A stretch of DNA of 64,000 nucleotides from an uncultured Mycoplasmatota bacterium (GTDB taxonomy: Bacteria > Bacillota_I > Bacilli_A > RF39 > UBA660), in contig CAOJYR010000004.1 in assembly GCA_948465965.1 (NCBI GenBank), positions 2,734-66,733 on the forward strand, read 5' to 3'. Positions 2,281 through 54,086 of this stretch are shown piece after piece (the first letter of the stretch is position 1; every line of letters starts with the position of its first letter). The position numbers and the translations under genes are program-made. A model generated the notes under the pieces. The model ran no database searches and had not been told where the DNA came from. It was given only the letters and a program-made list of their open reading frames with translations.

Positions 2281-3497
2281 GGGACTATGAAGATAAGTAT
2301 ATTGAACTTTTATTAAAAAGATGTATACATTTTAAGAAGTCTAACGCTTTAATGATACATATTGATTTAAAGGAGCATATGAAATTTGCTAAAAGGGTTG
2401 AGAAAGTTGCTCGCGATATGGGAGTAGAAGATATTTGTATCCATTTAAATGATTTAGATGATATTCATGAGTATTTAAAAAAGACTAATTTAGAAGATAT
2501 TAAACTTAATTCTTTGATAGATAGGTATGATTGGGATTTTTATTCATCTAAAGGTGGAGCTTGTTTATTTTTAACGTCTACTGTTCCAGGGTTAATGGAT
2601 GATATAGATGAAGCAAAACTACAAAAGTGGCTTACTCTTAGAAATGCTTCTAGTCCTTATTATAGGAGGCATGTTAAGGAATATATTTTTCCTTGGTGTA
2701 TTGCGTCTTTACCTAATCGAAGATGGGCAAAAACTATTTTTGGGAATGATTCTGCGGCTTATGATAAATTATATTTGAATATTATAAAGATGGTTATGGC
2801 TGATAGGGATGATCCTGTTAAAGCTTGGCAGAATTGGATTGATAAAAATAATTATTATAAAGAAGAGCTTAATAAATTAGAAATCACTTCTATGCACTAT
2901 AAAAACTCTATAGGTACGGACTTAATAGTTGGTATCCCTAAGGGGAACATTTGGCTTAACTTAAATAAAACTGACGATATGGGGAATCCAATTATTGTTA
3001 ATATGCCAAGTTATGAGATTTTTAATACTCCTAATAAATATATGACTAATGGAATAGTTAAATCTAGTAAGCCACTTTATTATAATGATTGTCTTATAGA
3101 TAATTTTTATCTTGGTTTTAAAGAGGGTAAAGTTATATCATGTGGAGCAGAGGTCGGTCAGAAAGTCTTAGAAACGTTTATTAGAGGTAATCCAGGTGCT
3201 AATTATTTAGGTGAAGTGGCTTTGGTTCCAAAAGATTCACTAATTGCTAATACGGGAATTGTTTTTAATGAAACTTTGTTTGATGAGAATTCTAGTTGTC
3301 ACTTTGCGTTGGGAGCAGCTACTGCAAGGAATATTCCAAATTATTATGATATGACTGATACAGATTTGGATAAAATTGGTTTTAATTCATCTATGATTCA
3401 TGTGGATTTTATGGTTGGAACTGATGATTTATCTATTGAGGCGGATACAAATAAGGGGAAGGTATTAATTTTTAAGAATGGTAATTTTAATATTTAG
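2277..3497 (+). CDS. Aminopeptidase, M29 (AmpS/PepS-like) family
   Basis: The C-terminal block GEVALVP...FNETLFDENSSCHFALG...MIHVDFMVG resembles B. subtilis AmpS. There is a 4-nt overlap with nth. Confidence 0.8.
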   Translation: MRDYEDKYIELLLKRCIHFKKSNALMIHIDLKEHMKFAKRVEKVARDMGVEDICIHLNDLDDIHEYLKKTNLEDIKLNSLIDRYDWDFYSSKGGACLFLTSTVPGLMDDIDEAKLQKWLTLRNASSPYYRRHVKEYIFPWCIASLPNRRWAKTIFGNDSAAYDKLYLNIIKMVMADRDDPVKAWQNWIDKNNYYKEELNKLEITSMHYKNSIGTDLIVGIPKGNIWLNLNKTDDMGNPIIVNMPSYEIFNTPNKYMTNGIVKSSKPLYYNDCLIDNFYLGFKEGKVISCGAEVGQKVLETFIRGNPGANYLGEVALVPKDSLIANTGIVFNETLFDENSSCHFALGAATARNIPNYYDMTDTDLDKIGFNSSMIHVDFMVGTDDLSIEADTNKGKVLIFKNGNFNI

Positions 3498-3535
3498 ACA
3501 TTAAAAAACTCTAGTTTGAAACTAGAGCTTTTTCT

Positions 3536-6202
3536 TTATGGAGTAACTATTGGATCTTCTGGATTAGGAGTTGGTGTAGTAGTAGGTGTAGGGGAAGGTG
3601 AAGGCGAAGGGGTAGGAGTTGGTGATGGTGTTGCTGGTTCTTTTAGTGTATAAGTAGCAGCATCACTTTGTGCTTCACTATAACTCTTATATGTTGCAAT
3701 TACTTTATAAGTTCCATATGGATTCTCTCCAGATCTCAATGTATACGAATAACTGGTTTTATCTGTAAATGATATTAATGTTGATCCCAAATATACATTA
3801 TATCCGAAGGTTCCATAGTTACTATCTGCATTTTCGATAGGATTAACTGCATTCCAACTTAATGTTACTTTGTTTGTATTTTCATCATATGTTACTTTGA
3901 AGTTTTCTGGTTTTGAAAGTTTTGTATTTTCTTCTACTATTCCCTTTGGTTCGTGTCCTTTTTTGAAGTATTCATAAACGATGCTTCCACTATTTCCTCC
4001 AGCTGGAATTGCTGCTTTTACAACACTTGATGGTTGTTTGAAGGCTTCTCTATTTGATTCCATAGCTCCAGATGATACTAAGGCTTTAAATAATTTGTCT
4101 TTTTGAACTGTTGCTGGGATATTTCTTAAGCAATATTCACTATCTATAAAATCATACCCATACCACATACCAATGACTGTTTTAGTAGAATATCCTATGA
4201 CCCATGAATCTCTGATTGCATCTCCTGGTAAATGATTCTTTTTCATTGTATTTTCATCATAGTTTGTTGTACCTGTTTTACAAGCTACATTATTTGGTGT
4301 TCCACCTGTTAGGGCTACATCTTGTAGAACGCTTGATATCATAAATGCTGTTGCATCGGACATCACTTGTTTTTTATTTGATTTATGTTCTTTTGTGGTA
4401 CCATTGTCTCTAAAGACTACTTTACTAACACTATATGGTTCATTGTAATATCCACCATTTGAGAAGGCTGCATATGCAGCACTCATTTGTAATGGGCTTA
4501 CTCCAGTAAAAGCACCAATTGAATGAGCTTCATGAATTTTACCATTTTCTATTTCTGGAGTTATTCCTAAACCTGTTACAAAGTCAATTATTTTTTTATT
4601 ATCTACTTGTTGGAAAGCTTTTAAGGCTGGGATATTTCTTGATGTTGATAGGGCTCTTCTTAGTGTGATTGTTCCATAATATCCACCATCCCAGTTTTTT
4701 ATGGATCTTCCATTTGAATAACTATATGGGGAGTCATCAAACATTTTATAATTATCATCACCATTTTGGTATCCATAAGTAGACCAATTGTTATATTCTA
4801 TACCTGGTCCATAGTCAAATAATGGTTTAGCGGTTGAACCTGGTTGTCTTTTGATTTGTGTTGCATAGTTGTAACTATTAGCTCCACTTCTATTACGTCC
4901 ATTACCGATGGCTAATATTTTTCCTGTTTGCGAATCTAATACAGAAACACCAGTTTGGACTTTATCATTAATCCAGCTATATGATTCTCCATTTAATACA
5001 GAGTTTACTGCATTTTGTTTTTCTGGATCCATATTCGTATAGATTAATAATGGTGTAGTATATGCATTTACTTCATATTTATCTTTTACTTCATCAACAA
5101 CAGTATCAATATATCCTTGGTACTCATTTGTTACTGAGTTTTCAACGTCTGCTGTTATAGATTCTACAGGGATACTGTTTGCTATTTTCTCTTCTTTTTC
5201 TGTTATATACCCATGGCGTTTCATTAAATAAAGAACTGTTTTTCTTCTTTCAGTAGCATTCTTAGGATTAGCTGTTGGTCTATAATAGTTAGGTGATTTA
5301 AACATTCCTGCAAGTACTGCGGCTTCACTAAGATTTAAATCACTAACGCTTTTCCCAAAGTAAGCTTCTGCAGCTTCTTCTACACCATAGATATTTCCAC
5401 CTAAGAAGTGATTATTTACATAAAATTCAATAATTTCTTCTTTACTATATTTTTTTTCTAGTTTGAATACTGCTAAATATATATCAGTAAATTTACGAAT
5501 AATACCTTTTATTCCGCTAGCCTCAGTTGATGTGAAGCTGTTTTTTATAACTTGCATTGATAAAGTTGATGCACCACCAGCATCTGATTGTCCAATTAAT
5601 TGTTTTGCTGATGCTTTTAAAAATCTTGCGGCATCAAATCCATTATGTTGAAAGAATCTTGAATCTTCAGTAGCAATGATTGCGTCAACTAATACTTGGG
5701 GTAGTTCATCATAAGTTACTTTTTCACGCATTTCAGAACCTAATTTAGCTATTTCTTTTTCATTTTTATCATAAATAATTGTTACTTCACTAGTATTTAA
5801 TTTTGAAGTATCAAATTTTGGAGCACTTACAGTAATATATATTAGAAATGCTGATAATAATGTTAATCCAAGGATTCCAAGGGCTAATATTATAATTAAG
5901 AGTATATTAATTATTCTTTTTTTCTTTTTATCATTTTTATATTTTTTTAATAGATGAGCGACTCCAACAATGATTCCAATACCTACTGCAGTTATTATGG
6001 TGAAAATTATGCCTAATTTTAAATAGCATAAAAGTAGTAGAGCTACAAAACCTATCCAACATGCAATTTCTATATTTTCATATTTTTTATTTTTTCTTGT
6101 TGGGGGTGTTTTTCCTTTTAGATTGTATTGTTTTGTTGTTTTGTTTGTACTTTTTGTTTTTGTGTTATTAGGTTTTTTTCTTTTTATATCTTTTTTTTGC
6201 AT
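3536..6202 (-). CDS. ponA: Class A penicillin-binding protein 1A (transglycosylase + transpeptidase) with C-terminal FN3-like domain and Pro/Thr/Ser tail
   Basis: GT51 motifs (EDSRFFQHNGFD, GASTLSMQ), transpeptidase motifs (STAKP, KTGTT) and an N-terminal TM helix. I moved the start to ATG 6202, which is preceded by GGAGG (6211-6215, minus strand). The track ORF extends to 6229. Confidence 0.9.
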   Translation of the reverse strand: MQKKDIKRKKPNNTKTKSTNKTTKQYNLKGKTPPTRKNKKYENIEIACWIGFVALLLLCYLKLGIIFTIITAVGIGIIVGVAHLLKKYKNDKKKKRIINILLIIILALGILGLTLLSAFLIYITVSAPKFDTSKLNTSEVTIIYDKNEKEIAKLGSEMREKVTYDELPQVLVDAIIATEDSRFFQHNGFDAARFLKASAKQLIGQSDAGGASTLSMQVIKNSFTSTEASGIKGIIRKFTDIYLAVFKLEKKYSKEEIIEFYVNNHFLGGNIYGVEEAAEAYFGKSVSDLNLSEAAVLAGMFKSPNYYRPTANPKNATERRKTVLYLMKRHGYITEKEEKIANSIPVESITADVENSVTNEYQGYIDTVVDEVKDKYEVNAYTTPLLIYTNMDPEKQNAVNSVLNGESYSWINDKVQTGVSVLDSQTGKILAIGNGRNRSGANSYNYATQIKRQPGSTAKPLFDYGPGIEYNNWSTYGYQNGDDNYKMFDDSPYSYSNGRSIKNWDGGYYGTITLRRALSTSRNIPALKAFQQVDNKKIIDFVTGLGITPEIENGKIHEAHSIGAFTGVSPLQMSAAYAAFSNGGYYNEPYSVSKVVFRDNGTTKEHKSNKKQVMSDATAFMISSVLQDVALTGGTPNNVACKTGTTNYDENTMKKNHLPGDAIRDSWVIGYSTKTVIGMWYGYDFIDSEYCLRNIPATVQKDKLFKALVSSGAMESNREAFKQPSSVVKAAIPAGGNSGSIVYEYFKKGHEPKGIVEENTKLSKPENFKVTYDENTNKVTLSWNAVNPIENADSNYGTFGYNVYLGSTLISFTDKTSYSYTLRSGENPYGTYKVIATYKSYSEAQSDAATYTLKEPATPSPTPTPSPSPSPTPTTTPTPNPEDPIVTP

Positions 6203-43620: not shown

Positions 43621-43881
43621 ATGGAAACACTTAAAGTAAGTAGTAAATCTAATCCAAATAGCGTAGCAGGAGCTTTAGCTAATGTATTCAGGGAAAAAGG
43701 AACTGTAGAAATTCAGGCTGTAGGGGCGGGTGCTTTAAATCAAGCGATTAAGGCAGTAGCAATAGCACGTGGTTTTGTTGCTCCAAGTGGTAAGAATTTA
43801 GTTTGTATTCCCGCATTTCAAGATATTGCGATAGATGGGGAAGAGCGAACTGCTATAAAATTAATTATAGAGGCTAAATAG
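43621..43881 (+). CDS. spoVS: Stage V sporulation protein S
   Basis: METLKVSSKSNPNSVAGALA...EIQAVGAGALNQAIKAVAIARGF is near-identical in pattern to SpoVS. Confidence 0.93.
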   Translation: METLKVSSKSNPNSVAGALANVFREKGTVEIQAVGAGALNQAIKAVAIARGFVAPSGKNLVCIPAFQDIAIDGEERTAIKLIIEAK

Positions 43882-43896
43882 GCCTCTTTTTCTTTT
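43869..43896 (+). terminator. Rho-independent terminator after spoVS
   Basis: agaggc-taaatag-gcctct hairpin overlapping the stop codon, followed by ttttctttt. Confidence 0.5.
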
Positions 43897-44008: not shown

Positions 44009-44037
44009 TTGACAGGTATTTATCAATATGCAATAAT
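44009..44037 (+). promoter_or_regulatory. Candidate sigma-A promoter of the SipW-type locus
   Basis: TTGACA (44009-44014), a 17-nt spacer ending in TGc (extended -10), then AATAAT (44032-44037). An AAAGGAGAG RBS follows. Confidence 0.45.
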
Positions 44038-44651: not shown

Positions 44652-45188
44652 ATGAAAAGATTAACAAAGAGAAGAATAAGAAGAGTGATATCTAGGAATT
44701 TTATAATCATTTTTTTGTTAGTTTTGTTACCTGCTTTTCTTTTAATGGCTACAGGATATTCTCTTTTAAAATCGGAAGGAATTGTTGATGGTGAGACCAG
44801 TATAGTTGTCCCCGAACCACCAAAGGATAATATTGTTACTGATGGTGATGCTTCGATAGAACTAGGAGATTCTGAGACTGGTATAAGAGTTGTTAAGGTA
44901 TTAGAAGAAGAACATACATGGGGCGGAACTGCTAATGTATATAAATTAACACTTTATAATGATACTGATTCACCTATTACGTCCTTTAGAGGAATTATAA
45001 AGTATAAAAATGCTAATTTTTCTTATGGTTCATATATAACTAGTTTTGATGATGCGGCAGGGATTGCAAATGTTTATTGTGACTGGATGACAATTCCTGT
45101 TGGTGGATCTATAACTCTTGATTTTGTTATAATGACAACTCAGGATGGGTATTATCCGGACATAGTAATAGTAGGGGTGAATTCTTAA
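44652..45188 (+). CDS. Secreted or membrane-anchored beta-sandwich-like protein, same class of N-terminal signal
   Basis: MKRLTKRRIRR + helix ending LLMATGYSLLKSEG. The body shows a carbohydrate-binding-module-like pattern (HTWGGTANVYKLTLYNDTDSPITSFRG...DWMTIPVGGSITLDFVI). Start set at ATG 44652 behind AGGAGA. Confidence 0.5.
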   Translation: MKRLTKRRIRRVISRNFIIIFLLVLLPAFLLMATGYSLLKSEGIVDGETSIVVPEPPKDNIVTDGDASIELGDSETGIRVVKVLEEEHTWGGTANVYKLTLYNDTDSPITSFRGIIKYKNANFSYGSYITSFDDAAGIANVYCDWMTIPVGGSITLDFVIMTTQDGYYPDIVIVGVNS

Positions 45189-45196
45189 GAAGATGT

Positions 45197-46372
45197 GTGA
45201 TAAATATGAGATATGTTAAGAGAAAAGAGTTAATTTTAATTGTTACATTATTTTTATTGCTTCAGGTTATTTTGCAAATTTTTAATGTTAGGTTAGTGAC
45301 TCAGATTAATTCTGTGTTTTGGATTTTGATCATTTATTATTTATATAGAAATTCTAAAAATAATTATACAAGGTTATCTAGTAGATTTTACCTTGATAAA
45401 ATGGTTATCATTTCTATTTTATATATACTAATTTACTTTAATTTAGGATTTGTATTTGGATTTTCAAAGAGTCATTTTAGTCATACTTTTAGTGGCATTT
45501 TAAGTAACTTTTTTGAGATAATTATTCCAATAATAGGGATAGAATATTTTAGAAATATAGTTATTAATAAGAATAGGTCGAATAAGTTAATTATATGGTT
45601 AGTGACAATTATACTAATTCTTTTTGAAATTAAGTTTAATATGTTGTTATCTAATTTTGATAATAAAGAGCAATTTTTTAAATATATTTGTTCTATAATA
45701 TTTCCTTTGATAGCTAACTCAATTTTATATTCCTATTTAACTTTAAAGGGGCCTTGTATAATTGTTCTAGTATTTAGATTACTTGAGAGAGTATCTATAT
45801 TGTTATTGCCAATAGTTCCTAGTTTAGATTGGTTTATGACAGGGGCTCTGGGTATTATTACGCCAGTTTTGATATATTTATTAATTAAGTATAAATTATC
45901 GAAGCAGGAAGCATATTACAAGGGTAGAACTGGTAAAAAAGATTTTAACAAAGTAAGCTATGTGATTGCTATTACATTGAGTGTCTTTGTGGTTTCCTTT
46001 ATGTTAGGTTTGTTTAAGTATGAGCCTATTGCAATATTGTCTGATAGTATGGTTCCAACGTATAGTAGAGGTGATATTGTTGTATATGAAAAGCTTTCCA
46101 GTGAAGAGCTAAAAAATATTAGGGTGGGGGAAATAATTGTTTATAAGATAGGTAATCAAAATATTGCTCATCGCATTATAAATGTAGATAAGGGGCTAGG
46201 TTCTGTTTTTTATCAAACAATGGGCGATAACAATAATGATCCTGATTTGCGCAAAGTTACACCAGATCAGATTATGGGAGTCTATGTTTTTTCAATGCGA
46301 TATATTGGATTTCCTTCTGTTTGGTTAAATGACTATTTTAGTGAAGAAAAAGCTAAAGTTGAAACAAAATAG
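45197..46372 (+). CDS. Fusion protein: ~250-aa polytopic (about 8 TM) membrane domain + ER/archaeal-type (S26B, SipW-like) signal peptidase I domain
   Basis: C-terminal boxes ILSDSMVPTYSRGD (Ser box, 46040-46051), IAHRII (His box) and MGDNNNDPD (box E). The first ~250 aa are almost entirely hydrophobic helices. The start is GTG 45197 or ATG 45206. Confidence 0.8.
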   Translation: MINMRYVKRKELILIVTLFLLLQVILQIFNVRLVTQINSVFWILIIYYLYRNSKNNYTRLSSRFYLDKMVIISILYILIYFNLGFVFGFSKSHFSHTFSGILSNFFEIIIPIIGIEYFRNIVINKNRSNKLIIWLVTIILILFEIKFNMLLSNFDNKEQFFKYICSIIFPLIANSILYSYLTLKGPCIIVLVFRLLERVSILLLPIVPSLDWFMTGALGIITPVLIYLLIKYKLSKQEAYYKGRTGKKDFNKVSYVIAITLSVFVVSFMLGLFKYEPIAILSDSMVPTYSRGDIVVYEKLSSEELKNIRVGEIIVYKIGNQNIAHRIINVDKGLGSVFYQTMGDNNNDPDLRKVTPDQIMGVYVFSMRYIGFPSVWLNDYFSEEKAKVETK

Positions 46373-47454: not shown

Positions 47455-47567
47455 TTTTAATATGGAGTAATGGTGATAGGAGCAAAATAAATATGCTTCC
47501 TTTTTGTTTTATCTTTTTCGTTTCTGTGGTAAACTATAAATAGAATAATAGTGAGAGAGTGATAATT

Positions 47568-48353
47568 ATGAATGATGAGATAATCTATTGTCCTAGGTGC
47601 GGAGCTAGTATGAAAAATAGTTCTAGATATTGTATGAAGTGTGGAGCTCTTAACTTTGATCATCCTGATAATCAATCTATGAAGCAATATATTAGTGAAA
47701 AAGAAATAAACAAAAGTAATATTGGGTATGCAGATAGTAATAATAATATAGAAAATAAAGTTTTTGTTGGTGGTAAAGAGTTAAAAGAAGTATCTATTGC
47801 CTCTTCACCACAGGTTGAGTCAAAGAATTATAAAGCAGAGATTCTATATATTTTGTTAATATCACTTCTTGCTTTTGGAGCTGTTGCGTTTTTTCTAGAT
47901 CAATCTTTTATGGTGGGAATTTATAGTTTTTTAATTGTTTTTTTCTCATTACTTTCTGTTTTAGCAACTTCTAATATTTATAGGAAGGCAGGGTATTCTG
48001 GATTTACTGTGTTTATTCCATTTTATAACATGTATATTTTATGTGAAATGTTATTTGGCAAAGGGATTTTATTTTTACTTGGATTTGTTCCTATAGTTAA
48101 TATATTTTTTTCGTTTGTACTTCTTTATAAGTTAGGAGAAAAATATGGTATTAATGGTATTTTATCGATTTTATTTGCACCTATTGTGTTACTGGTTATA
48201 GCTTTTAGTGATAGGGTTGTATTTTTAGGTGCTCCTAATCCAAATACAAAAGCTGTAATAACTATTATTGGCCTTTGTTTTATGATTATTTATATTATTT
48301 TGATAGGAATAGCAATGGATAATTTTCTTCATATGGTGAGTTTCTTGAATTAA
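47568..48353 (+). CDS. Zinc-ribbon + DUF5684-like membrane protein
   Basis: N-terminal CPRCG...CMKCG zinc ribbon. The membrane part contains YRKAGYSGFTVFIPFYNMYILCEMLFGKG, resembling the KAG.PGW..(I/L)IP.YN...L motif of DUF5684 proteins. Confidence 0.6.
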   Translation: MNDEIIYCPRCGASMKNSSRYCMKCGALNFDHPDNQSMKQYISEKEINKSNIGYADSNNNIENKVFVGGKELKEVSIASSPQVESKNYKAEILYILLISLLAFGAVAFFLDQSFMVGIYSFLIVFFSLLSVLATSNIYRKAGYSGFTVFIPFYNMYILCEMLFGKGILFLLGFVPIVNIFFSFVLLYKLGEKYGINGILSILFAPIVLLVIAFSDRVVFLGAPNPNTKAVITIIGLCFMIIYIILIGIAMDNFLHMVSFLN

Positions 48354-51555: not shown

Positions 51556-53070
51556 TTAAAATTTTATGACAACTACATTATTAATTAATTTGATACTATT
51601 ATTATTTGGGTATTCTGCCATATTTTTATATTCATTTGTATTTAAAATGTTATTATAATTATTTATATCTATAAATTCTATGTTTACTCCTAAATATTCA
51701 TACATGTATCTAGTCCAACCATTTTTAATATTAGTATATTCATCCCAAAATAATGACTTATTTGCAACAAAACCATAATTTAATTTATATATATTATTTA
51801 ATTCTGAATTGGTATTATGATTATAATATTTATTATTATTTAGGTTACCTGTAATCATAATTTTTTTGTCATAACCTAGTTCATTTATTTTATCAATAAT
51901 ATTACTGGCTATTTTATATGTTTTATTATAGGTGATCTCTAGTGCTTGATATGTAGTGCTATCTTGTATAATATAGTTTCTAATTAATAGGATTAATAAT
52001 AGAATAGAAATATATTTAAGAATATTTTTATCTTGTAATAAAGATAGGGTAAAGGGCATTACGAACATATAACTAGATGACATTAGTAGTTGCATTTTAC
52101 AGTTTGGTATTATTAATAAGATGAAGTTTATAAATATAGGTGTAATAGCTATTAATAGTATTGTTAATAAAATGTTTTTTATTGATAATTTGTTTTTAAT
52201 AACTGTTTTAATAATGGTTATTAATAGGATTATAAAGGTAAATATATAAATTATATTATTATACACTATAGTGTTATTAACTATTTTGTTAGTAAAGAAA
52301 AATTGATAGAAAGTAATATAGGTTTTTAAGATCATATTTGGCATGTTTATAATGTTTTCTATTCCAAACTGATTTGCTCCACTATAACTACTTAAATTGA
52401 TATGAAATATAAGTAATGATAATTTCATTAATATATAGTAACTTATCATACTTATTCCTATAATCAATAATTGTTTTATAGATTGTTTTAAGTTAAAATT
52501 GTTATTTAAAAGATTATAAATGCTATATAGAATTATAATTGTTAATGATGTTGTTATAAAGGATTGATATATACTCATAGAAATTACTATAGATAATATT
52601 GGTACTATAACTTTTAAATATTTATTATTATAATTTAGAAGATAATATACTCCAAATATGCTGAAGAATAAGGCTGTTATATAAGCAAGAGAGCAATAAT
52701 TAAATAGAAAGATTGAAGATATGTTAGGACATATAGTAATTAATACACAGAGTATGATTTGCAAGGGTTTCTTTTTTATTTTAAAAATATCTATAATCAT
52801 TATATTGATTAAGGATAGAATAAAGAAACTTATAAATAGTTCAATATGTGGTATTACTAAAAATGATTTTAATATTCCAACGATAAATAGTCCAAATCTT
52901 CCCAGGGATATTTCCCAACTATAACCCGAATAATATAGGTTATTTAATAATATGTCTGCTGTTAATATATTTTTTGTATAAAGTGGTAGATGTATAATTA
53001 GGCAAGTTGTAATTGTTAATATTATTATAAGTAAATTATTCTTGTTACATAAGTTTTTTAGTTTTTTCAT
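51556..53070 (-). CDS. Large polytopic membrane protein (12+ TM), GT-C / GtrII-like glucosyltransferase suspected
   Basis: Almost entirely hydrophobic helices with a ~110-aa C-terminal soluble domain. No sharper motif recognised. Confidence 0.45.
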   Translation of the reverse strand: MKKLKNLCNKNNLLIIILTITTCLIIHLPLYTKNILTADILLNNLYYSGYSWEISLGRFGLFIVGILKSFLVIPHIELFISFFILSLINIMIIDIFKIKKKPLQIILCVLITICPNISSIFLFNYCSLAYITALFFSIFGVYYLLNYNNKYLKVIVPILSIVISMSIYQSFITTSLTIIILYSIYNLLNNNFNLKQSIKQLLIIGISMISYYILMKLSLLIFHINLSSYSGANQFGIENIINMPNMILKTYITFYQFFFTNKIVNNTIVYNNIIYIFTFIILLITIIKTVIKNKLSIKNILLTILLIAITPIFINFILLIIPNCKMQLLMSSSYMFVMPFTLSLLQDKNILKYISILLLILLIRNYIIQDSTTYQALEITYNKTYKIASNIIDKINELGYDKKIMITGNLNNNKYYNHNTNSELNNIYKLNYGFVANKSLFWDEYTNIKNGWTRYMYEYLGVNIEFIDINNYNNILNTNEYKNMAEYPNNNSIKLINNVVVIKF

Positions 53071-53114
53071 ATTATCACCAAGTATATTTTATCATATAAA
53101 TTTCAGATAAAGTC

Positions 53115-54086
53115 TTATTTTTTCTTTTTTTGTTTCGAATAGTTTTTATTTTGTATGTATTCTTCTTGGTATACTTCATTAAAAATTTCTTTTATTTTAT
53201 CTATGCTATTGGATGATATTATTTGGTATTTTTGTCCTATTACAGTATTTAGAAATTCATTATAAAGCCTTTTACTAAAGGCTTCAATACTACTAGTAGA
53301 GGCCATTTTTAGGCAGGATTTTTGTATTAATAGGTGTAGGATTTGATTGTATTTATTTTTAGTTTCTGTTAAAGAACTATTTGTAATATTAAGTAATATA
53401 TTTAAATTAGCATTTAGAGTATCAAATATAAAAGAGTCATATATTTGATTAATTAAATTAATATCTTGATGATGTTTAATTAATATTTCTTTTCCTGTTT
53501 TTTCTTTTAGATCCTTTTTATTTATTAATTTTTCTTCAATGTATTTATTTGAAAATATTATATCGTATTTTGAGTAAATAAGTTTATTATATATAGATTT
53601 ATTTTTTTCTGTTTGTATTCTTTTTTCTAACTGATTTAATAGACTTATAGTATAGTCCTTATTTGCTTGGTTTAATATTTTATTTACATTATCATCGATC
53701 TTTTCTTGTGTTACTTTCTTTTCAGATGGTGTTGGATTTATATATGTTTGGTAAATAAAATAGTTTTCAATTCTTTTTGTTAGTTTTCTTATCACATTTT
53801 CATTGTAATTTTTATGTTGTATTCTAAAATAAAATATATTTAAAAACACTTCGATTTCTTCTTCTTTTTTTAGGTTTAGTTTTTCATAAATTTTATTCTC
53901 TACTTCTACTCCTAGTTTTAGATATTCTAAATATTCAAAATATTTTTCAGAAGTGTTTTCTTTTTTTGCGTTTATCAATTCATTGTATATAATTAAGATA
54001 CTATTTGTTATATCTAAAATTCTATCAATATAATTTACCTGTTCAGTATAAAGCATAATCTTCTCCTTATTTATAAAATTTATCAT
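53115..54086 (-). CDS. Hypothetical Lys/Asn/Glu-rich helical protein (323 aa)
   Basis: Long ORF transcribed divergently from the ankyrin gene. No motif recognised. Confidence 0.45.
   Translation of the reverse strand: MINFINKEKIMLYTEQVNYIDRILDITNSILIIYNELINAKKENTSEKYFEYLEYLKLGVEVENKIYEKLNLKKEEEIEVFLNIFYFRIQHKNYNENVIRKLTKRIENYFIYQTYINPTPSEKKVTQEKIDDNVNKILNQANKDYTISLLNQLEKRIQTEKNKSIYNKLIYSKYDIIFSNKYIEEKLINKKDLKEKTGKEILIKHHQDINLINQIYDSFIFDTLNANLNILLNITNSSLTETKNKYNQILHLLIQKSCLKMASTSSIEAFSKRLYNEFLNTVIGQKYQIISSNSIDKIKEIFNEVYQEEYIQNKNYSKQKKKK

Follow-up and report, generated by a model that had tools for sequence, protein, structure and literature searches.

Why should a signal peptidase carry about 240 residues of additional membrane domain ahead of its catalytic part? 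The question is raised by a gene in a 64,000-nucleotide stretch of DNA (the window) from an uncultured Mycoplasmatota bacterium (assembly GCA_948465965.1, contig CAOJYR010000004.1, positions 2,734 to 66,733). SipW of Bacillus subtilis has about 190 amino acids and one or two membrane helices, whereas the product of this gene has 388 amino acids and nine helices. It is a signal peptidase of the SipW/Sec11 type, permanently fused to an eight-helix membrane domain without a named family, hereafter the N-domain. We are confident that the enzyme is dedicated to the fibre subunits encoded upstream of it. We are less sure that the eight extra helices act as a non-catalytic scaffold positioning the substrate signal-anchor, the DUF5305 protein encoded downstream, or both, a role proposed by analogy with known membrane complexes.

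The Fused Gene and Its Catalytic Domain

The mechanical open reading frame (ORF) runs from 45197 to 46372 on the forward strand, opens with GTG and encodes 391 amino acids. Since homologues begin uniformly with M-R/K-Y-V/I-K in the alignment, and an identical public database protein (P0001) has 388 amino acids, translation most likely begins with the ATG at 45206. With one exception, which is indicated, residues are numbered below as in the 388-residue protein.

An earlier reading of these letters, made without database searches (the sequence-only reading), had taken 45197–46372 as one gene encoding a SipW/Sec11-type peptidase with a large helical extension. The gene was found as described, and the fusion of the peptidase with a domain of eight helices and about 240 residues proved to be genuine and conserved. 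The alternative named in that reading, a separate gene for the N-terminal region or a frameshift, was ruled out, the frame being unbroken in more than 120 clusters defined at the 90% identity level and in 232 genomes. The full-length architecture is kept in these clusters at 40–55% identity, and the 232 genomes that encode close relatives are distinct at the species level. The same survey tells how widespread the fusion is, which the sequence-only reading had asked, and the neighbours of the gene in its cassette are kept as well. The best 80 of the 232 are metagenome-assembled genomes (MAGs) from gut samples, labelled Clostridia, Bacilli, 'Tenericutes' or Erysipelotrichaceae; the nearest relatives are found in MAGs from the guts of rabbits, humans and ruminants that bear the labels Clostridia, Bacilli or 'Tenericutes'.

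The N-domain was also followed on its own. Its profile was searched against 1.84 billion cluster representatives (50% identity) and gave 1318 matches at E ≤ 0.001, with 867 at E ≤ 1e-10. Among the best 150 matches there are 111 proteins of at least 340 amino acids, and the peptidase boxes are missing in a single one of them, P0249, described below. The boxes follow the strict order S-x-S-M / H-R / G-D-x-N in 95 of the 111 and are variant in 15, as read by eye. A query consisting solely of an N-domain retrieved 289 proteins, nearly all of about 390 amino acids; those for which a source is named bear the label signal peptidase I and come from Dehalococcoidia/Chloroflexota, Archaeoglobales and Bathyarchaeia.

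Judged from its sequence, the catalytic part is a SipW/Sec11-type enzyme with its Ser/His/Asp active site intact, since it scores 81.7 bits with TIGR02228, the NCBIfam model of archaeal-type signal peptidase I (cut-off 51.85; residues 253–378 in the numbering of the 391-residue ORF), and its Ser, His and Asp boxes are invariant. The Pfam family Peptidase_S26 (PF10502) is also matched, with 28.8 against a cut-off of 22.9. The Ser box SDSM lies at nt 46040–46051, exactly where the sequence-only reading had placed it, with S281 as the nucleophile, followed by H322-R323 (46169–46174), D341 (46226–46228) and D347 (46244–46246). In an alignment of 44 sequences, S279, S281, M282, H322, R323, G340, D341, N343 and D347 are all invariant. 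The protein remains below the Bacillus SipW equivalog model NF046067 (58.5 bits against a cut-off of 190), and it departs from the usual S26B architecture in its length of 388 amino acids and in the eight extra helices ahead of the anchor helix. When the full-length structural model was compared with known structures by Foldseek, the top match was Streptococcus pyogenes SipA, aligned to the C-terminal domain, with a non-significant E-value of 0.068.

Three minor features of this part of the protein were recorded. An amphipathic conserved stretch, Y-I/V-G-F/Y-P-S-V/I-W-L, follows the catalytic domain at 46340–46369 and reads Y-I-G-F-P-S-V-W-L in the window protein. Many homologues finish in a conserved K-V-E-T/I-K (or V-E/D-x-G) tail, which reads K-V-E-T-K in the window protein. 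Weak matches to the Pfam family Amidase_6 were found in 6 of 46 fused peptidases, the best with E 4.8e-4.

Gene Cassette and Presumed Substrates

The gene belongs to a cassette whose order and strand are kept across 83 loci: a secreted subunit, sometimes a second subunit, the fused peptidase and a DUF5305 protein (coordinates in Table 1). A gene for a subunit of the 164-residue type is present in all of these loci but one, a DUF5305 gene in 79, and a homologue of the minor subunit between subunit and peptidase in 23; the conserved cassette contains no ATPase or glycosyltransferase gene. In the window, the intergenic gaps of the cassette measure 2 to 96 nt, the DUF5305 gene starting 2 nt past the stop codon of the peptidase gene. 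The ORF of the minor subunit extends from 44601, and the ATG at 44652 is favoured as its start because an AGGAG ribosome-binding site is present. The promoter-like site with an extended −10 TG is the best one upstream of the cassette, and the only terminator-like hairpin (43869–43887) comes after the spoVS gene, with none inside the cassette. Outside the Bacillota, two archaeal loci (L085 and L086) carry both the fused peptidase and DUF5305, and a Chloroflexota locus (L088) has the fused peptidase without DUF5305. This operon context, with TasA/AbpX-like subunits upstream and DUF5305 downstream, had escaped the sequence-only reading.

The 164-residue subunit carries a CLIPPER_2/CARDB-like beta-sandwich and passes the CLIPPER_2 model (formerly DUF7507, PF24346) with 31.3 bits against a cut-off of 27. 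CLIPPER_2 is a family of surface beta-sandwich domains, often with an isopeptide bond, for which an intramolecular Lys-Asn bond has been predicted (PMC12617251). The signal of the subunit and the strand that follows it, M-x-V-G-Y-S/A-A-F-A-T/S-Q-L-x-I/L-N-G-T, are as conserved as the folded core. Such conservation, unusual for Sec signals, suggests that the signal is recognised in a dedicated step.

Cleavage of the subunit is predicted at Y-A↓A-F (the arrow marks the cut), by analogy with the cleavage region of TasA, which we take to read …T-W-A↓A-F-N-D. The motif also resembles the AbpX donor strand Q-W-S-E-T-L-S-L (preprint supplement, 10.64898/2026.01.04.697558). In the archaeal and Chloroflexota loci, small neighbour proteins carry G-F/Y-A-Y-A-x-W-S/D-E/D-x-L/V motifs, the substrate motif G-Y-A-x-W/F-S/D-E/D recurring on them, and the subunit family of the window aligns with an archaeal YWTETL subunit with an hhalign probability of 91%.

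The N-Terminal Membrane Domain

AlphaFold2 was run on the full-length protein with the 44-sequence alignment (pLDDT 81.5, pTM 0.72) and on the N-domain alone (pLDDT 88.3, pTM 0.83). Both models contain the same eight helices, at residues 7–26, 28–50, 60–84, 95–122, 127–149, 154–181, 184–200 and 209–239, joined by short loops, which bears out the eight extra helices with very short loops that had been predicted from the letters. In the full-length model an anchor helix, residues 245–267, precedes the catalytic domain. This ninth helix is the counterpart of the one N-terminal anchor that ordinary SipW/Sec11 enzymes possess. Since S26 domains act outside the membrane and a Lys/Arg-rich linker, predicted to be cytoplasmic, stands before helix 9, we infer that the N-domain bundle has an N-in/C-in topology.

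Conservation was determined over 156 non-redundant N-domains with less than 60% identity to each other. The most conserved residues are E113 (99%), R116 and G81 (98% each), N101 (97%) and P202 (95%), followed by G85 and P205 (94%) and by W209 and Y177 (92%). The codons of E113 and R116 occupy nt 45542–45544 and 45551–45553, that of N101 45506–45508, the P202/P205 segment 45809–45820 and that of W209 45830–45832. In the model, G81, G85, Y91, N101, P202, P205 and W209 come together on the face predicted to point outwards, close to the catalytic domain, and with the topology proposed above E113, R116 and Y177 would lie in the inner leaflet.

Two pairs of residues inside helices had been singled out by the sequence-only reading. 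The Glu/Arg pair of IGIEYFRN is real, being E113 and R116. The Cys/Arg pair fared differently: C184 is not conserved, its column being mostly Tyr, while R191 is kept in at least 90% of the sequences among close relatives only. Neither in the 44-sequence alignment nor among the 156 N-domains is there any conserved His or Cys, and the conserved His, Cys, Ser and Asp motifs typical of intramembrane proteases have no occurrence in the N-domain. A second catalytic module, one of the roles that had been considered for the domain, is unlikely because no such motif is conserved.

The domain could not be assigned to a family by eye in the sequence-only reading, and profile searches led to the same result. 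Scans of the window protein with Pfam and NCBIfam left the N-domain without a match, so it is not an already annotated domain in those collections. Across 46 diverse family members, Pfam at E ≤ 10 gave no recurrent match in the N-domain, only stray, non-significant membrane families, and a PDB sequence search with the N-domain profile returned 0 matches at E ≤ 10. Several families had been proposed for comparison. Rhomboid, O-antigen ligase/Wzy and GT-C families did not appear as Pfam matches in the 46 members, nor among the Foldseek PDB matches listed. A Cys/Arg catalytic pair of the exosortase type is ruled out because the Cys is not conserved; exosortase and archaeosortase were rejected also for want of a conserved His and of any NCBIfam or Pfam match at E ≤ 0.1.

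When the confident model of the N-domain was compared with the PDB by Foldseek, nothing significant emerged. The top match is the CAAX protease Rce1 (4cad_L, TM-score 0.50/0.48 over 245 columns, probability 0.91, E 0.45), followed in TM-score by APH-1 of gamma-secretase (0.38) and by chain 6 of the multipass translocon entry 7tm3 (0.35), which we take to be TMEM147. The other PDB matches listed have TM-scores below 0.25. Rce1, APH-1 and TMEM147 share one fold, and APH-1 and TMEM147 are non-catalytic scaffolds within larger membrane complexes. All are eight-helix bundles of about 240 residues, like the N-domain; a conserved Glu…Arg pair on helix 4 is a further similarity. In a viral fold library, two unnamed phage proteins were matched with TM-scores of 0.42–0.47, again not significant.

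A Variant with a Substrate Signal in Place of the Peptidase

P0249, the exception among the N-domain matches, has 474 amino acids and begins with the same N-domain. A Lys-rich linker and a hydrophobic helix come next, then the substrate-like signal …SLAYPYWTETLNIGGT…, followed by a beta-sandwich and finally a dockerin; a peptidase is absent. Its signal and donor-strand region reads …S-L-A-Y-P-Y-W-T-E-T-L-N-I-G-G-T…, and its cluster comprises four full-length members of 469–474 amino acids from JGI and ENA sources. P0249 physically links the N-domain to the class of substrate signals, because it replaces the peptidase by a substrate-like signal, a donor strand and a beta-sandwich. Upstream of the gene on its contig (L084), the ORFs 2147–2716, 2737–3432 and 3450–4064 encode three small proteins, two of them with AbpX-type W-S/T-E-T-L signals. 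As a separate observation, the contig looks archaeal because an HTH_45 regulator is present.

Role of the N-Domain

As a whole, the gene is read, with a modest leaning in favour, as encoding a type I signal peptidase that is dedicated to a TasA/AbpX-like fibre cassette of four genes and whose N-domain is a non-catalytic scaffold. The subunit precursors encoded from 44061 and 44652 would be inserted by the Sec pathway, and the enzyme would recognise their conserved signal-anchor and cleavage region (…M-x-V-G-Y-A↓A-F-A-S-Q-L…). The N-domain would dock the substrate signal-anchor, DUF5305 or both beside the active site, where the external Ser281/His322/Asp domain would cut the precursor. The cut is expected to free an N-terminal donor strand and so allow polymerisation by donor-strand complementation. 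The role proposed for the N-domain resembles that of the separate accessory subunits of the eukaryotic signal peptidase complex and that of APH-1 in gamma-secretase.

A docking platform had been one of the possibilities of the sequence-only reading and is the one favoured here; the fold matches to the scaffolds APH-1 and TMEM147, the conserved outer-face residues and P0249 are consistent with it, the docking itself being, like the cleavage site, what we infer. A more specific proposal is made only tentatively, and with some doubt: the N-domain may be a very diverged, catalytically dead receptor within the membrane, of Rce1/APH-1/TMEM147 fold, for the signal peptide class G-Y-A↓x-W/F-S-E/Q-T/Q-L, coupling cleavage to the donor-strand polymerisation of TasA-type fibres.

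Several points weigh against the scaffold reading. Binding of any partner by the N-domain is itself a prediction, and the topology was deduced from the positive-inside rule, together with the fact that S26 domains are known to lie outside the membrane. The near-invariance of the charged residues E113 and R116 within helix 4 would also fit catalysis, or the binding of an ion or substrate. The Rce1-type fold match is not significant, and the profile comparison with the CPBP family, given below, is negative. Homology of the 164-residue subunit to known fibre proteins is also weak: it aligns with AbpX of Pyrococcus abyssi with an hhalign probability of 4% (E 0.011), the alignment including a shared PG…N-x-G-T-I-x-A motif, and TasA (5of1) is matched with E 1.3, with no PDB sequence match supporting the TasA link.

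According to one alternative, the fibre would have its membrane base or assembly platform in the N-domain, which would hold the filament or the next subunit, with cleavage coupled to donor-strand insertion. The P0249 fusion resembles a membrane-tethered anchor subunit, the conserved residues concentrate on the outer face, and SipA, the top fold match of the C-terminal domain, is according to its PDB title a signal-peptidase homologue essential for pilus polymerisation. However, the basis is a single variant architecture, the anchoring contact is predicted, and filaments of TasA and AbpX assemble in vitro without machinery, as reported in the literature. We regard this alternative as unlikely; it overlaps with the scaffold reading and does not exclude it.

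Slightly less likely is that the N-domain works as a second, intramembrane protease, a divergent glutamic endopeptidase of the CPBP/Rce1 type, which would either degrade the released signal peptide or cut the substrate a second time and so turn the protein into a two-protease machine. Rce1 heads its structural matches in the PDB, and a protein named 'CAAX protease self-immunity' is among the top three of the viral library by E-value, although the match is poor (E 0.64, TM-score 0.22, probability 0.15). In addition, E113-x-x-R116 on helix 4 resembles motif 1 of the CPBP family, EExxxR, which is likewise on helix 4 of Rce1. Against this, the motifs EExxxR, FxxxH and HxxxN are all invariant in an alignment of 42 PF02517 proteins, retrieved with a consensus-like bait, while the N-domain has only E-x-x-R where they have EExxxR, and its lack of a conserved His leaves FxxxH and HxxxN without a counterpart. 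Comparison of N-domain alignments of 23 and 208 sequences with these 42 proteins by hhalign gave probabilities of 0.4–0.5%, and PF02517 was not matched at E ≤ 10 by any of the 46 members. The Foldseek E-values, 0.45 and 0.12, are not significant. No CPBP gene was found by motif in the window or in the 83 loci. With no match to PF02517, an hhalign probability below 1% and neither the His nor the Asn motif present, the Rce1/APH-1-like fold is taken as a lead and not as a finding, and the N-domain is not filed as a CPBP member.

Finally, it is very improbable that the N-domain transports or exports the subunits or a modifying group. Such a role is suggested by a polytopic domain with conserved charged residues inside its helices and by nothing further; against it, the substrates have ordinary Sec-type signal peptides, no transporter fold exceeds a TM-score of 0.25 among the PDB matches listed, no Pfam transporter is matched, no internal repeat is found and the cassette has neither an ATPase nor a glycosyltransferase gene.

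Relation to Known Systems

TasA-type fibres hold biofilms together in both Bacteria and Archaea, and we know of no machinery for their assembly beyond the dedicated signal peptidase and, in Bacillus, TapA. SipW, an S26B/Sec11 enzyme, is similar to the fused peptidase in its Ser/His/Asp catalytic domain and in being encoded beside TasA-type subunits with a cognate Y/W-A↓A-F signal, but its partner is TapA, whereas that of the fused peptidase is DUF5305.

A further comparison is with the AbpX loci described in a preprint. AbpX-associated signal peptidases have ten transmembrane helices, DUF5305 is probably an accessory subunit of the peptidase and is sometimes fused to it, and Thermoproteota, Bacillota and Chloroflexota all have homologues of AbpX (bioRxiv 10.64898/2026.01.04.697558, January 2026). 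In these loci as in ours, a subunit of the TasA superfamily is accompanied by a peptidase with many helices and by DUF5305, and both sets are distributed over Bacillota, Chloroflexota and archaea. Very probably the window contains a Bacillota member of this type of cassette, so the unusual peptidase had already been noticed, in one sentence, in the preprint, which the sequence-only reading had missed. That sentence does not cover the fold of the extra domain, its conserved residues, the size of the family or its variants; the fold comparison, the conserved residues, the family size and the P0249 variant are added here.

The eukaryotic signal peptidase complex (SEC11 with SPCS1/2/3) is alike in combining an S26B subunit, extra helices and an accessory protein, and differs in that its extra helices belong to separate proteins, while here they are fused to the catalytic subunit. 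The preprint likewise draws an analogy between DUF5305 and an accessory subunit of the signal peptidase complex (10.64898/2026.01.04.697558). No homology of the N-domain to SPCS1/2 was detected among the Foldseek PDB matches listed.

A large family, of at least 1300 clusters at 50% identity, thus joins a peptidase to a conserved polytopic domain and usually pairs it with DUF5305, which suggests that cleavage occurs inside a defined membrane complex. The N-domain is widespread in two domains of life and deserves a Pfam/InterPro entry of its own, because the proteins that contain it are currently labelled only 'signal peptidase I'. If the receptor proposal were true, Bacteria and Archaea would share a prokaryotic equivalent of the signal peptidase complex, made of one chain where that complex has several subunits, and signal and enzyme would form a new sorting pair of the kind known from LPXTG/sortase or PEP-CTERM/exosortase. 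Practical benefits are modest. Gut Bacillota commonly carry the cassette.

Other Features of the Locus

The features of the cassette and of the variant are collected in Table 1.

Table 1. Positions of the cassette elements, of the parts of the fused protein and of the P0249 gene (window coordinates, except for P0249, which refers to contig L084).
Feature	Coordinates	Strand	Basis or remarks
Promoter-like site	44009..44037	+	TTGACA, 17 nt, TG-AATAAT; 11/12; consensus match only
Secreted TasA/AbpX-like subunit, 164 aa	44061..44555	+	PF24346; 82/83 loci; conserved signal
Second, minor subunit, 178 aa	44652..45188	+	Similar signal …MATGYSLLKSEGIVDGETSI
Fused peptidase gene	45206..46372	+	388 aa from ATG (most likely start); homologue starts and identical P0001
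N-domain, eight-helix bundle, residues 1-240	45206..45925	+	AlphaFold2 models, conservation
Ninth helix, residues 245-267	45938..46006	+	After Lys/Arg-rich linker, predicted cytoplasmic
S26B catalytic domain, extracytoplasmic	46016..46369	+	TIGR02228; invariant active-site boxes
DUF5305 protein, 359 aa, two membrane helices	46375..47454	+	PF17231, 5e-15
P0249 gene	L084:4115-5539		Beta-sandwich CARDB-like

The subunit genes vary among loci in number and size. Tandem duplicates of the gene of the 164-residue type stand upstream of the peptidase gene in seven loci (L006, L038, L042, L057, L061, L062 and L067), and an additional subunit copy lies on the opposite strand in L045 and L055. For the second gene of the cassette, product lengths between about 150 and about 720 amino acids occur across loci, as for a variable tip or minor subunit.

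Directly upstream of the cassette, a spoVS gene (PF04232, 7e-39) occupies 43621–43881 and has its own terminator-like hairpin; spoVS adjoins the cassette in L038 too. These observations suggest a host that forms spores or descends from a spore-former. Downstream of DUF5305, the region 47559–48353 encodes a protein of 264 amino acids that has a zinc ribbon at its N-terminus and a DUF5684 membrane domain at its C-terminus. A zinc-ribbon protein is instead found immediately upstream of the cassette in L001–L003, and it may be a loosely associated component or a regulator. Further away, a very hydrophobic polytopic membrane protein of 504 amino acids is encoded on the reverse strand at 51556–53070, in the region where the G+C content of the window is lowest (52001–54000, 0.204).

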